A stretch of DNA of 64,000 nucleotides from Candidatus Yanofskybacteria bacterium (GCA_003514055.1 DOSG01000008.1:121229-185228), one strand, 5' to 3'; counted from the first letter of the stretch, positions 14,923-25,848 are shown. Notes: generated from the letters alone by a model not told the origin. Numbers and translations are program-made.

Positions 14923-15123
14923 GAATCATCCGCAGACAAGCCAAGAATAGGAGATTGGAAAAGCATTAGTCCAAAACAACAGGTCGAGGGCAATACAATC
15001 ATTAAGGAAGAAGGCCTCCCACTAAGTGGGAGGCCTTCTTTAAATGATAGTGCGAGGGTTACCTATTGTTTTGGCCTACTAATGCTTTTCTGTATCGACT
15101 AGACTTGGCGTAGTCGAGGACAA
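14923..15123 (+). ncRNA. conserved-block element R1, homologous to an inverted copy at about 25681-25848
   Basis: Blocks GAATCATCCGCAG, AGGTCGAGGGCAA, TGATAGTGCGAGGGTTACCTA, TTTTGGC and CGAGGACA are shared as reverse complement with the 25.7-kb element. Intervening sequence diverges; R1 carries an extra perfect hairpin GAAGGCCTCCC-ACTAAGT-GGGAGGCCTTC. Confidence 0.35.
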
Positions 15124-15592
15124 GATGAAAAAATGGATGGGGCGGAGCGTGATTTTAAAGTATTAAAAAACTCGTGCCACCGAGATACCCGGTCAGCACG
15201 AGCTGGGTGGAGTTACTCAGCGCTTCGCGCCTTTCGCCCCACCCCCCTACCTACTTGCGTCGCGTCCGTCGGCGATTTACCCTACGGCGGCCGCCACGAC
15301 CTGTCTGGTGCCATGCGTCCTCCACGCGAGTCGATCATCGTCATTGTCGAGTTCTGGACGCTTGGTCGTAGCTATTTGCTACGGCGGCCGCCAGGATCGA
15401 GGGGTTAGCATCATTCCTCCGCATCGTGTAGGTCTACGAATTGAGCGGGCCCGGAGCGGGCCGAGCGCAACAGTCTTCGCCACTATGGCCACCGTTCGCT
15501 GGCCGCTCCGGACCTTCCGTCAACGATACGCCTTTCGCTGGGTCGTCGGGACACGTATCAGGCCCCGCTTCCTCCTCAGATCTAGTGTCTTC

Positions 15593-15751
15593 GGAAGAAG
15601 GTTCAGGCTTTTTTGGGTGGAGTGCCTGACTTTATCTCCGAATGCCCGCGCCCGAGAGAATCTCGGTGCCGCAGGCAATTGGCAGAAGCTGTCCTTCCTT
15701 CAATTCAAACCTTATGAAAGGACTCCCGCTTCCACCAATAGGTACGACCAG
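15593..15751 (+). repeat. 159-bp perfect direct repeat, copy 1
   Basis: GGAAGAAGGTTCAGGCTTTTTTGGGTGGAGTGCC...CACCAATAGGTACGACCAG is identical to 16106-16264. Confidence 0.8.
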
Positions 15752-15773
15752 GCCGTCGGTTCGTGGTCCATCC

Positions 15774-16019
15774 TTACCGGGGGCCGCAGGACGTGCAGGC
15801 GTTCATCGTGCAGACGTTGTAGCCGAACGGGCGGGCCAGGAAGTCATACCACGGGCAATCCTGAGTGACGACCGTCATGCACTCACCCGAGGGGTTGTCG
15901 TAGCCCGCGTCACTCGGGTCGCAGTAGGCGGGACGAGCATCGACGCGGGTCGATTCCGCGATGGGAATGACGATGACCGCGATCAGGAGCATGATGGTGA
16001 ACAGTCTACGCTTGGACAT
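15774..16019 (-). CDS. GC-rich small secreted/membrane-anchored cysteine-rich protein
   Basis: From the internal ATG: MSKRRLFTIMLLIAVIVIPIAES (signal/TM), then a mature part of about 58 aa with 8 Cys. GAGGT lies 5 nt upstream. Sits exactly between the two 159-bp repeats. GC about 60 % versus about 38 % background. Confidence 0.4.
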   Translation of the reverse strand: MSKRRLFTIMLLIAVIVIPIAESTRVDARPAYCDPSDAGYDNPSGECMTVVTQDCPWYDFLARPFGYNVCTMNACTSCGPR

Positions 16020-16105
16020 GGATACCTCGGGTTGTTGGGAATGGGTGAACACCGCTTTGGGCGGCCGTACCTTCTTCTTCGCATCTTCCACGACTTACAG
16101 ACTTT

Positions 16106-16264
16106 GGAAGAAGGTTCAGGCTTTTTTGGGTGGAGTGCCTGACTTTATCTCCGAATGCCCGCGCCCGAGAGAATCTCGGTGCCGCAGGCAATTGGCAGAA
16201 GCTGTCCTTCCTTCAATTCAAACCTTATGAAAGGACTCCCGCTTCCACCAATAGGTACGACCAG
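16106..16264 (+). repeat. 159-bp perfect direct repeat, copy 2
   Basis: Identical to 15593-15751. Confidence 0.8.
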
Positions 16265-23244: not shown

Positions 23245-23752
23245 TGTAGATATTAAATATGCGAGTCAGCAGAAAATATTCTATAGCGATTATTATATAT
23301 GAATGAATATAGAACCTATAATCTTTCAGATGATTCCCAAATTTGAACGCATTTAAGCTCTCGCCGGAGATAAACTGTTGAGAGTAGTGACTAATAATCA
23401 ATATCGCGACAGTAAGGGCCAGTCCCAGTATAGGCATCGCAATAAAGCTCATATATCCGCTACGTTCAGAGAATATATTAAAACTGATAATTCTATCCAT
23501 CCCAAACAATACCAAGATAATTAAGCTCATAGGAAGAATAATTGAGCCGAGCGGATAACCAAGAATCAGCTCATACAGAATCGAAAAGAATGGAAGAAAA
23601 ATGAATACTCTTTTTCTAGGACCGAAAACCAGTAGACAACTTGCCAGATATGTAATTACTAAAAAATTAAAATACGCACCGTAAAGAGCTGGCCCGATTA
23701 GTCCATCAACAGCGATACACAATAAAAATATCAATAGGAACCACAAGAACAT
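23228..23752 (-). CDS. mreD: rod shape-determining protein MreD-like membrane protein
   Basis: 174 aa, 5 TM; position between mreC and PBP2. Confidence 0.45.
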   Translation of the reverse strand: MFLWFLLIFLLCIAVDGLIGPALYGAYFNFLVITYLASCLLVFGPRKRVFIFLPFFSILYELILGYPLGSIILPMSLIILVLFGMDRIISFNIFSERSGYMSFIAMPILGLALTVAILIISHYSQQFISGESLNAFKFGNHLKDYRFYIHSYIIIAIEYFLLTRIFNIYNEERL

Positions 23753-24540
23753 TATTTTTTTATAATTAAGACTCTTGAGAATCTTATCTGATCAAATGCT
23801 GGCTTAATTCTCACCTTCTTAAACAATTCTCCGGCTTTAGTCTCAACCAAATCAACTGTACCTATAATCAAAGCTGCTGGGAAAAGGTCATCACCAGAAG
23901 ACACAATAAGATCCCCCTCCCTTACGTCATCGTCCTCAACGATCAAATCTAAATTTAAACCATTACGCACAGCTCCGACAGCGATACCTCCAGCTCCAGA
24001 TGCCGCATCCCTAGCCGTAACCTTGAAAGAACTGTCGATTACCGAAACGACTCTAGAAAAAGTCTCAAAGACATCTCCGATTCTACCTATTAGTACACCC
24101 TCGTCAGTCACAACAACGAGGCCACTTTCTAACCCGTCGCTAGAACCCTTATTAATTAAAAAATTTAAACCGTCTAAAGATGCCGAACTGCTGAATATGC
24201 TGGCATCCACGAATGAAAATTTATGTTTTTCTGCTAAATTTAAAGATTTTCTCAAATAATTATTCTCTTCTTCTAAATTCTTAAATTTAGACAATTGACT
24301 AGTAAGATCGTCAACTTTCTCGCGCAGGGCCACGTTATCATTAGAGACTTTTCCCAATCTTCTAAATTCATCCCAGAACATTCTGAAGCCGTTCATCTTC
24401 TCAAATAGATAAACTGCCGGCCTTTGAATTATCCCTACGTTTGGAACAATCTGCCCAATCCAAAAACGACTGGCTAGAGCCATCGCCAATAAGATAAAAA
24501 TTAAAAATATTAGATACGCCAGGAACTTATTCCTCATCAT
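23752..24540 (-). CDS. mreC: rod shape-determining protein MreC
   Basis: N-terminal TM, coiled coil, C-terminal beta domain (GDLIVSSG...FPAALIIGTV). Confidence 0.7.
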   Translation of the reverse strand: MMRNKFLAYLIFLIFILLAMALASRFWIGQIVPNVGIIQRPAVYLFEKMNGFRMFWDEFRRLGKVSNDNVALREKVDDLTSQLSKFKNLEEENNYLRKSLNLAEKHKFSFVDASIFSSSASLDGLNFLINKGSSDGLESGLVVVTDEGVLIGRIGDVFETFSRVVSVIDSSFKVTARDAASGAGGIAVGAVRNGLNLDLIVEDDDVREGDLIVSSGDDLFPAALIIGTVDLVETKAGELFKKVRIKPAFDQIRFSRVLIIKK

Positions 24541-24543
24541 GGT

Positions 24544-25593
24544 TTATATATAAGCCTCTCTCTCGGTTGAGACTAATACGTTCTTGAGCTGATCCACGTT
24601 TTCCAAGACAAAACCGCAACCACGAGCAACGGCCGTTAACGGATCGTCGACAATTTTAACAAACAGCTTAGTCTCTTGAGCTATGAGCCTATCCAACCCA
24701 CGCATCATCGCTCCACCGCCGGCAAGATATATGTGCCTATTTATAAGATCAGCCGTAAGCTCTGGCGGCGTCTCTTCGATTGTGCTTTTAACCGACGCAA
24801 CAATTAGGGCTATAGACCTCTGCATTGCTTCGCGAAGATCATATGACGTGATCGGCAGCTCCTTAGGCAGCCCAGAAACCAGGTCTCGACCCCTAACTGT
24901 ACCTTCTAGCTCATCTTCAAGCGGAGAAGCCGAACCAAACATAATTTTCAGATTCTCAGCCGTTGCATCACCTATTAGAAGATTCTTCTGCTCTCTCATA
25001 TATCTCACAATATCTTCACTCAATTTATCTCCGGCTATTCTAAGAGATCTAGACGCTATAACGCCTCCCATAGAAATTACAGCCACCTCCGTAGTCCCAC
25101 CACCCATATCGACGATAACATTGGCTACAGCGTCCTGGACTGGTAATCTTGCCCCTATAGCCGCGGCCATAGGCTCTTCTATCAAATAGACCTCTCTCGC
25201 ACCAGCATTATATGTTGCATCTTCGACTGCACGCCTCTCAACTTCGGTCACGCCAGAAGGTATGCCCACAACTACACGTGGCCTCGGAAATAATGCAAAT
25301 CCTTCCTGATGGACTCTGTCTATGAAGTACTTGAGCATCTGCTCGGTAACCTCGAAATCGGACACCACACCGGAAACCAATGGCCTAGAGACCATGATAT
25401 ATCCAGGCGTACGCCCTACCATTTTCTTAGCTTCTTCGCCTATGGCTAAAATCTTGCCAGTTTTTTGATTAACTGCGACTATCGATGGCTCATTGATGAT
25501 AATACCTTTGCCCCTAACATAAACTAAGGTATTTGCAGTACCCAGATCAATACCAATATCTTTTGACCAAAAACCAAAAAGTTTGTTTAACAT
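24544..25593 (-). CDS. mreB: rod shape-determining protein MreB (actin-like ATPase)
   Basis: IGIDLGTANTLVYV...DMGGGTTEVAVIS. Confidence 0.9.
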   Translation of the reverse strand: MLNKLFGFWSKDIGIDLGTANTLVYVRGKGIIINEPSIVAVNQKTGKILAIGEEAKKMVGRTPGYIMVSRPLVSGVVSDFEVTEQMLKYFIDRVHQEGFALFPRPRVVVGIPSGVTEVERRAVEDATYNAGAREVYLIEEPMAAAIGARLPVQDAVANVIVDMGGGTTEVAVISMGGVIASRSLRIAGDKLSEDIVRYMREQKNLLIGDATAENLKIMFGSASPLEDELEGTVRGRDLVSGLPKELPITSYDLREAMQRSIALIVASVKSTIEETPPELTADLINRHIYLAGGGAMMRGLDRLIAQETKLFVKIVDDPLTAVARGCGFVLENVDQLKNVLVSTEREAYI

Positions 25594-25680
25594 CCTCGTT
25601 TAATCCTTATCTTTCAATAACATAACATATCAAAAATGATATGAACAATCAAAAGACGTTCCACCCCTTCCATCTCCTCA

Positions 25681-25848
25681 TCGTGTCCTCGCCTGCATCA
25701 TTGACTATCGAGTTGCCTAGGCAAGAATAAGCCAAAAAGATAGGTAACCCTCGCACTATCAATTTCTTATAGGTGTTGCCCTCGACCTATCTTTTTGGAT
25801 TCTTGATTCTAGTCACTCTACAGTCAATGATTTAACTGCGGATGATTC
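25681..25848 (-). ncRNA. conserved-block element R2 (inverted homolog of R1), positioned as a sense-strand 5' leader about 90 nt upstream of mreB
   Basis: TAGGTAACCCTCGCACTATCA, TTGCCCTCGACCT and CTGCGGATGATTC are reverse complements of the R1 blocks. Same block order when read on the minus strand. Confidence 0.35.

Follow-up and report, generated by a model that had tools for sequence, protein, structure and literature searches.

In a 64,000-nt stretch of the genome of a Candidatus Yanofskybacteria bacterium (GCA_003514055.1, DOSG01000008.1:121229-185228; this whole stretch is called the window here), two elements in inverted orientation, R1 and R2, are diverged paralogous copies of a dispersed, uncatalogued family of 210-250 nt in Candidatus Yanofskybacteria, within the candidate phyla radiation (CPR/Patescibacteria). 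The base pairing of the family is under selection, specifically on the strand that is plus in R1 and minus in R2. Our preferred reading, to which we give a probability of roughly one half, is that the element is a dispersed structured repeat of the REP/bcr1 kind that would act as RNA at gene boundaries, and that it is neither a leader of mreB nor a substrate for inversion. The two copies are as follows.

14897-15154, plus strand: R1, a full family copy (covariance model (CM) score 291.8 bits; minimum free energy −115.8 kcal/mol, z −11.8).
25657-25872, minus strand: R2, a full family copy with the architecture of R1 and a short tip (CM score 244.7 bits; minimum free energy −91.8 kcal/mol, z −8.3).

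The original prediction had described R1 and R2 as two homologous multi-block elements in inverted orientation with five conserved blocks in the same order. Indeed, the two elements are real and the order of the blocks is kept. Four of the five blocks are exact, collinear reverse-complement matches: GAATCATCCGCAG (14923-14935 in R1, 25836-25848 in R2), AGGTCGAGGGCAA (14981-14993 and 25776-25788), the 21-mer TGATAGTGCGAGGGTTACCTA (15045-15065 and 25741-25761), and TTTTGGC, which was found in both copies. The fifth is shared only as CGAGGACA, since R1 has GTCGAGGACA and R2 has GGCGAGGACA at this place. The 21-mer, which is the longest identical run found between R1 and R2, occurs twice in the window versus 0.00 expected matches (100 shuffles), even when three mismatches are allowed; the 13-mers GAATCATCCGCAG and AGGTCGAGGGCAA alone are not significant once mismatches are permitted (1.7 and 1.1 expected matches). 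The significance of the pair is thus carried by the 21-mer together with the collinear block order. The homology is full-length (66-78% identity, depending on the alignment) and runs past the limits first given for the elements: it includes a 15-bp closing helix (in R1, 14908-22 with 15129-43), whose sequence differs between R1 and R2 and which is nevertheless paired in both, and, at the ends of both copies, a 5' TCAAGCG(T/A)AG motif and a 3' GGA(G/A)CG tail. The CGAGG string that had been noted in three of the blocks proved to be a feature of the whole family, in which CGAGG/GAGG is invariant. Apart from this, AGGTCGAGGGCAA with at most two mismatches occurs six times in the window versus 1.06 expected (none of 100 shuffles reached six), and its near-matches outside R1 and R2 lie within open reading frames (ORFs), at 38141, 47243, 47715 and 49306.

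R1 and R2 each fold into one long interrupted hairpin, with the z values given above. RNAalifold on the two copies gave 60 pairs, of which 17 were changed on both sides and none was broken. In the model alignment of 26 sequences, 93.3% of the cells pair and 48 of the 60 pairs show compensatory change; the covariation score was 0.555, versus 0.15 for shuffled alignments (0 of 500 reached 0.555) and 0.07-0.09 with slid partners. Variation is greatest in the terminal helix (P1), where 14 of 15 pairs have changed on both sides. The invariant residues lie outside this helix: CCGCAG opposite GACGAGGAC, AGGUCGA opposite G(C/A)GAGGGUUACCU, the 14-bp helix between the basal and apical modules, and the foot AAGCGA opposite GGAGCG.

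From base to tip, the family therefore forms a rod with a foot, AAGCGA/GGAGCG, which is a GC/GC core between G-A mismatches; a fast-evolving helix of 15-20 bp; a purine-rich internal loop with CCGCAG opposite GACGAGGAC; further helices, followed by the nearly invariant 14-bp helix; and a second purine-rich module, AGGUCGAG opposite GCGAGGGUUACCU, below a variable tip. The spacing between the modules is fixed at 51-52 nt. In R1, these parts are located as follows.

14897-15154, plus strand: overall layout, with an outer helix AATCA/TGATT, the foot AGCGT opposite GGAGCG, the 15-bp P1, internal loops, the conserved helix of 14-18 bp and the apical module.
14923-14935, plus strand: 5' side of the basal internal loop (GAATCATCCGCAG; family consensus yCCGCAGgCaAG).
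14967-14993, plus strand: 5' arm of the conserved helix and AGGTCGAGGGCAA, the 5' side of the apical module (inverted repeat I3; AGGTCGA invariant in 29 sequences).
15008-15040, plus strand: R1-specific perfect 16-bp hairpin, terminator-like, in the variable tip (arms 15008-15023 and 15025-15040, 100% complementary).
15045-15078, plus strand: 3' side of the apical module (TGATAGTGCGAGGGTTACC) and 3' arm of the conserved helix (GGGTTACCT invariant or nearly so in the family).
15115-15128, plus strand: 3' side of the basal internal loop (CGAGGACAAGATGA; GACGAGGAC nearly invariant in the family).

The tip hairpin had been reported as a perfect 11-bp hairpin present in R1 only. It is real and longer than that, with fully complementary arms of 16 nt, and it is missing from a 91%-identical copy in another contig (L054).

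The two strands of the element are not equivalent. The forward strand, i.e. R1(+)/R2(−), folds better in all 30 distinct copies, with a mean gain of 14.9 kcal/mol; the reverse strand of R1 folds 17.9 kcal/mol worse, and the reverse strands of R1 and R2 score 220 and 190 bits lower with the CM. Within the stems, G-U was counted 86 times versus 30 for A-C, and A-C falls to 9 without two columns that probably do not represent pairs. Since one strand has the folding advantage and G-U exceeds A-C, selection acts on a single strand. The simplest reading is that the selected molecule is RNA, single-stranded DNA being the alternative. Three further ideas about the conserved parts were dropped. Loops evolving in concert within a genome, with stems following the ancestry of the locus, did not agree with the comparisons of R1 with R2 and of R1 with R3 (the copy in a relative described below), which are equally similar in paired and unpaired columns. 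A conserved small peptide (MKKWMGRSV... on the 3' arm of R1, MRRWKGWNV... in R2) was rejected as the frame is not kept in other members. Finally, the string beginning with GGUUACCU resembles, by eye, the complement of the 16S 3' region, but this likeness becomes faint in the consensus of the family.

The family is absent from the catalogue we searched. At the gathering threshold, Rfam 15, whose families include riboswitches, leaders, T-boxes and ribozymes, found only two tRNAs in the whole window and nothing at R1 or R2. Permissive scans of R1 and R2 (E≤10) gave sub-threshold matches only, which we judged to be chance (for example, the terminator part of Thr_leader on the R1 tip hairpin, 29 bits versus 55, and miRNA models), and the 6S, SRP, Y-RNA, Csr and Rsm models remained unmatched. 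The original prediction had proposed a covariance-model scan, and a model built from R1 and R2 alone does find further family loci. In a relative, L011, it detected a third copy, R3 (115.8 bits, E 4e-25), located 1 nt past the stop codon of the FtsQ-like gene, with a closing helix of wholly different sequence that is fully paired. For the metagenome scan we used a three-block pattern purposely set to miss R1 and R2, followed by the CM: the pattern matched 63 metagenome contigs, 30 of which hold CM matches, on the forward strand and with 45-210 bits, mostly at least 64. These loci come largely from Rifle and Hainich groundwater. An nhmmer profile added L060 and a second copy in L087, so that about 30 loci beyond R1 and R2 are at hand. 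Together with the strong covariation, they bear out the earlier view of a functional motif family rather than a recent duplication.

Every named protein next to a copy belongs to Candidatus Yanofskybacteria, and the MreC of the window is 100% identical to an NCBI protein of Candidatus Yanofskybacteria bacterium RIFOXYB1_FULL_44. An exact 18-mer scan across one genome per GTDB species matched only Alistipes and Rhodococcus, which we read as chance, and neither passed the CM; the 18-mer block is specific to R1/R2. In viral contigs the pattern matched 36 times with no match passing the CM, and the phage and plasmid collections contained no similarity to R1 or to the GC-rich block that follows it. 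Separately, the 5' half of the element (profile positions 5-89, 26 bits) stands by itself in L054 (117-201) and in L100 (3020-3104), beyond dnaB and about 2.4 kb away from a full copy.

The copies occupy a characteristic position. About 19 loci have the stop codon of a converging gene at 0-20 nt from the 3' end of the element; in the remaining cases a gene running in the same direction starts 34-129 nt beyond that end (mreB in the window and in L087, dnaB, obg, an HU gene and a ribonucleotide reductase gene). The converging neighbours are housekeeping genes that are unrelated to one another: ftsZ, recR, rpoC, gyrA, priA, lepA, rnc, ftsW, fba, a PMT gene, a ribonucleotide reductase gene and a HerA-like gene. 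On the 5' side a spacer of 50-400 nt is usually kept. Copies at unrelated loci can be 89-97% identical (e.g., after ftsZ and after recR), and no target-site duplication was found, the longest common string between the 5' and 3' flanks averaging 4.72 versus 4.67 in mismatched pairs. Presence differs between relatives: L065/L066 have a copy at the HerA-like locus (orthologue 72-74% identical) where the window has none, and R2 is missing from L011. We conclude that the family is a dispersed repeat, with near-identical copies at unrelated loci, no target duplication and a presence that differs between relatives.

Among known systems, the closest kinds are dispersed intergenic repeats that function at the RNA level (bcr1, ERIC, YPAL) and REP/BIME. 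With bcr1 of the Bacillus cereus group and with ERIC/IRU and YPAL/RU-2 of enterobacteria, the element shares that it is non-coding, multi-copy, intergenic at gene ends and variably present between relatives. Repeats of the bcr1, ERIC and YPAL type are transcribed and fold into long hairpins; in bcr1, which is flanked by 5-bp direct repeats, compensatory base-pair changes maintain the structure at the RNA level (PMC3184786). The Yanofskybacteria family likewise has similar copies at unrelated intergenic loci that differ between relatives, and compensatory changes that maintain the structure. However, bcr1, ERIC and YPAL measure 100-170 bp, whereas the Yanofskybacteria element measures 210-250 nt and has no target duplication. 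ERIC and MITE-like repeats (MITE, miniature inverted-repeat transposable element) have conserved terminal inverted repeats. In contrast, no part of our element evolves faster than its terminal helix, and its invariant residues are those of the internal purine loops and of the apical helix. A MITE derived from a DDE transposase would be expected to have a target-site duplication and conserved terminal inverted repeats; here, no target-site duplication and no conserved terminus beyond the foot motif of 5-6 nt was found.

REP, BIME and REPIN sequences are extragenic palindromes mobilised by RAYT (Y1 HUH) proteins; they are located after stop codons or between converging genes, carry a foot motif and are lineage-specific, and REP/BIME form clusters of alternating orientation without target duplication. 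The Yanofskybacteria element resembles REP/BIME in its gene-end position, foot motif, alternating clusters, lack of target duplication and lineage specificity. However, REPs are 20-40 nt and REPINs about 70-120 nt long and roughly symmetric, whereas our element is 5-10 times longer and has strand-asymmetric conserved loops; it has the conserved foot motif, and no 20-40-nt palindrome or symmetric doublet with a 5' tetranucleotide was found in it. Two other comparisons reach less far. Like 6S, SRP and Y RNA, the element has about 200 nt and a single long interrupted helix that is closed by the 5' and 3' ends and contains conserved internal loops; unlike them, it has no Rfam match, many copies per genome at unrelated loci and no single large bubble resembling an open promoter. 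The attC sites of integrons (57-141 nt, with RYYYAAC/GTTRRRY cores) lie behind promoterless cassettes in arrays next to intI. The element shares with attC a variable sequence with a conserved hairpin, whose structured strand begins directly behind the stop codon of the adjacent gene and is complementary to the coding strand of that gene, but it differs in its neighbours, which are core housekeeping genes (rpoC, gyrA, ftsZ), and in its feet, AAGCGA/GGAGCG. To summarize, the family differs from its closest kinds in size, absence of target duplication, variable termini and conserved internal purine loops.

According to the reading that we prefer, the element would be an intergenic repeat of the REP/BIME, ERIC or bcr1 type that is copied to new gene ends now and then. 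A copy would be retained since its transcript forms a rigid hairpin, which could bind a protein via the GAGG loops and mark the boundary of the gene, with the 3' end flush with a converging stop codon or placed just before the next promoter. At such a boundary the element could stop or insulate transcription, or protect the end of an RNA. A stronger version of this proposal appears unlikely to us: a new CPR-specific class of structured RNA, a 220-nt rod whose three GAGG purine loops would load a dedicated protein, which would act as a genome-wide boundary device (termination, insulation, RNA-end protection) in genomes that have hardly any intergenic DNA and would spread by duplication-free copying that recognises the AAGCGA/GGAGCG foot.

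Several results weigh against the element being a repeat that acts as RNA at gene boundaries. A sigma-70-like promoter at a fixed upstream distance was not found: 9 of 28 flanks had no candidate, and in the others the candidates were scattered, with a weak excess of promoter-like hits at −9 to −35. Forward transcription would be limited in 9 of 28 copies by a terminator-like hairpin that points forward and ends 10-24 nt upstream of the element, and at about 11 loci no upstream gene could read into the element because its 5' neighbour is divergent. Transcription of a gene that abuts the 3' end would copy the reverse strand, which is the weaker one. Most copies have no U-tract after the foot (only one subfamily ends with GCUUUU); after GGAGCG, most 3' tails continue into the complement of the stop codon of the neighbouring gene, and an intrinsic terminator scan found none at R1 or R2. 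With regard to copying, there was no clean pair of filled and empty sites when L113 was compared with L075 upstream of the ribonucleotide reductase gene, nor was any transposase, reverse transcriptase, integrase or HUH/Y1/RAYT nuclease present among the ORFs scanned in the 64-kb window. The analysis revealed no partner protein or mobilising enzyme, and the boundary role is a prediction. The L113/L075 pair itself was rejected as filled versus empty because it shows a replacement and no precise insertion, with about 20 nt left from the 3' terminus of the element. As a side observation, the T-run of the preceding terminator-like hairpin ends at a rather constant distance of 13-24 nt before the element in R2, L075, L081, L087, L093, L101, L113 and L057; possible reasons are the choice of target, compaction of the genome or a promoter that overlaps the T-rich tract.

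A somewhat unlikely but serious alternative is that the copies are independently transcribed, trans-acting small RNAs (sRNAs), each with its own promoter in the 5' spacer and with the terminal helix as the end of the transcript, whose three GAGG/GGAG motifs titrate or scaffold a protein in the manner of 6S or CsrB/Rsm. The strand-specific structure, the invariant unpaired purine motifs and the fixed module spacing of 51-52 nt agree with this, as does the asymmetry of the flanks, since the 5' side nearly always has a spacer of at least 50 nt and the 3' end needs none. In addition, the best promoter-like hits lie 9-35 nt upstream in 12 of 19 cases, and copies persist at orthologous loci: after ftsZ (L075, L113), after the FtsQ-like gene (L011, L094) and before mreB (the window, L087). 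However, neither a conserved promoter nor a U-tract terminator was found in the copies, terminator-like hairpins stand only 10-24 nt upstream of nine of them, and Rfam 6S, Csr and Rsm are unmatched even at E≤10. Near-identical copies at unrelated gene ends and clustered variants would also be unusual for sRNA genes.

Less probable in our estimate is a purely selfish, non-autonomous element that moves as a single-stranded DNA hairpin, a giant analogue of REP/REPIN or of IS200/IS605-PATE. An HUH/Y1 enzyme encoded elsewhere would read the AAGCGA/GGAGCG feet and the hairpin, and the structure would be selected for mobility only. This would account for the absence of target-site duplication, a strand-specific hairpin that tolerates G-T, short foot motifs common to the structurally different elements R, X, H and Y (the last three are described below), near-identical copies at unrelated loci, BIME-like clusters in alternating orientation (in the R1 spacer and also in L087 and L113), and the partial copy in L054 (117-201) and the remnant in L075. 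But no Y1, HUH or RAYT gene was present among the window ORFs scanned, the element is 5-10 times larger than REPs, and its orientation is independent of the replication strand, R1 and R2 being opposite within a monotonic GC skew. Furthermore, old diverged copies at orthologous loci are still perfectly paired in extremely compact genomes, which argues for selection on the resident copies.

The proposal that R2 is a 5' leader of the mreB-mreC-mreD-PBP2 operon was not upheld. R2 is indeed in sense orientation to mreB, its end lying 63 nt before the ATG, and L087 also has a family copy before mreB. The sites between R2 and its neighbours are the following.

25624-25652, minus strand: mreB promoter-like site TTGATT-N17-TATGTT, downstream of R2 and outside the element; conserved in L002/L011, L003 and L087.
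25891-25935, minus strand: terminator-like intrinsic hairpin of proS with a T-run, outside the element; it ends about 24 nt before R2.

Because the promoter-like site lies between R2 and the ATG of mreB and is kept in relatives, R2 stands upstream of the likely promoter and is therefore not a leader. The comparison with the relative L002/L011 leads to the same conclusion: its MreC and MreB are 84% and 98% identical to those of the window, the gap between proS and mreB measures only 107 nt and contains no R2, and L011 keeps TTGATT-N17-TATGTT all the same. Moreover, most copies stand directly at the stop codons of unrelated genes that converge on them, no consistent downstream gene family was found (two copies precede mreB and the others lie beside many unrelated genes), and R1 has no downstream gene. 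A cis-regulatory leader, riboswitch- or attenuator-like, with R1 as a second one, is thus highly improbable. The proS gene next to R2 deserves a separate remark: its product (25940-27205, minus strand) is a ProRS of 421 aa without the C-terminal domain, whereas at the same position L011 (690-2150) encodes a 486-aa ProRS with ProRS-C_1 that is only 24% identical to it. To judge from these sequences, one ProRS type seems to have replaced another at a conserved position.

That R1 and R2 mediate inversion of the 10.7-kb ftsQ...mreB segment is barely credible despite their inverted orientation at its two flanks, as assemblies, on which this test rests, show one arrangement (24 of 24 contigs read for MreB collapse to a single gene arrangement, and among the 24 read for the FtsQ-like protein the only differences are in the GC-rich block or at the ends of contigs), the relative without R2 keeps the same gene order, the two copies are only 66-78% identical with no identical run found beyond 21 nt, and family members elsewhere are single or unpaired.

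The element should be seen against the background of CPR/Patescibacteria genomes, in which very small size goes together with tight packing: if the gaps between ORFs of at least 90 aa are counted, the window has only 14 that are larger than 150 nt. That an element of 220 nt with many copies and near-perfect compensatory evolution should be junk is therefore improbable in such compact genomes. In the literature on non-coding RNA and repeats of CPR bacteria we found almost nothing beyond introns and rRNA insertions. The alignment of about 30 sequences with unusually strong covariation is enough for a family of the Rfam type, and it raises testable questions, namely how CPR bacteria bring transcription to an end or insulate it, and by what route a duplication-free repeat spreads. 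For annotation, the element explains the two largest non-coding gaps of the window and corrects a tempting misannotation as mreB leader.

R1 shares its 2.2-kb spacer with three further elements, with which it alternates in orientation.

14707-14887, minus strand: Y variant, with feet TCAAGCGAAG ... GAAGCG, a P1 of 12-14 bp and a GC-rich branched interior (signature scan; fold z −5.5, −6.0).
16550-16768, minus strand: X, a distant relative, with CCAAGCGAAG, P1, GGGTCGA...GAGGGGCATCC and a GGCGGAGTG tail (CM score 23.5 bits, E 6e-6 over 901 nt, filters off).
16774-16963, plus strand: H variant, with TCGAGCGAAG, a 15-bp P1, GCGCAG, a GATGA-P1'-GAGTGC tail and a different tip (CM score 23.2 bits; I5 arms 100% complementary; z −7.7).

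The 3' end of Y touches the stop codon of the PMT gene, and that of H touches the stop codon of the FtsQ-like gene, which is the position of R3 in L011; X is conserved beside R3 in L011. Y, X and H have the foot motifs and the terminal helix of the family but other interiors, which suggests a wider superfamily defined by AAGCGA...G(G/A)AG(C/T)G feet.

As stated in the original prediction, R1 points into a GC-rich block. The block (15170-16270) starts right after R1 and has about 60% GC in a genome of about 40% GC. It contains a 163-nt direct repeat (15589-15751 and 16102-16264, 99% identical, period 513 bp); assemblies of a single species differ in its copy number, and it is here that contigs break (L012-L015). 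A small ORF in the block (15774-16019, minus strand) encodes a product with a predicted signal peptide, eight cysteines (MSKRRLFTIMLLIAVIVIPIAESTRVDARPAYCDPSDAGYDNPSGECMTVVTQDCPWYDFLARPFGYNVCTMNACTSCGPR) and no Pfam match, and in L014 the ORFs called in the block (142 aa) are tandemly duplicated. At 16273, ATCGAGGGTTACCCC repeats the core of the apical module inside an imperfect inverted repeat (16250-16266 and 16345-16361); the segment 16270-16361 may be the remnant of a copy disrupted at the edge of the block.

Elsewhere in the window, the next largest gaps after the R1 spacer (between ORFs of at least 90 aa) are 51936-52503 (568 nt) and 57651-58166 (516 nt, which holds a tRNA), neither of which matches the family signature. 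A stand-alone GIY-YIG nuclease ORF of 95 aa (4030-4317, minus strand) adjoins a tRNA gene (3956-4026, minus strand), and an ORF with a Schlafen AlbA_2 domain is located at 3281-3895.

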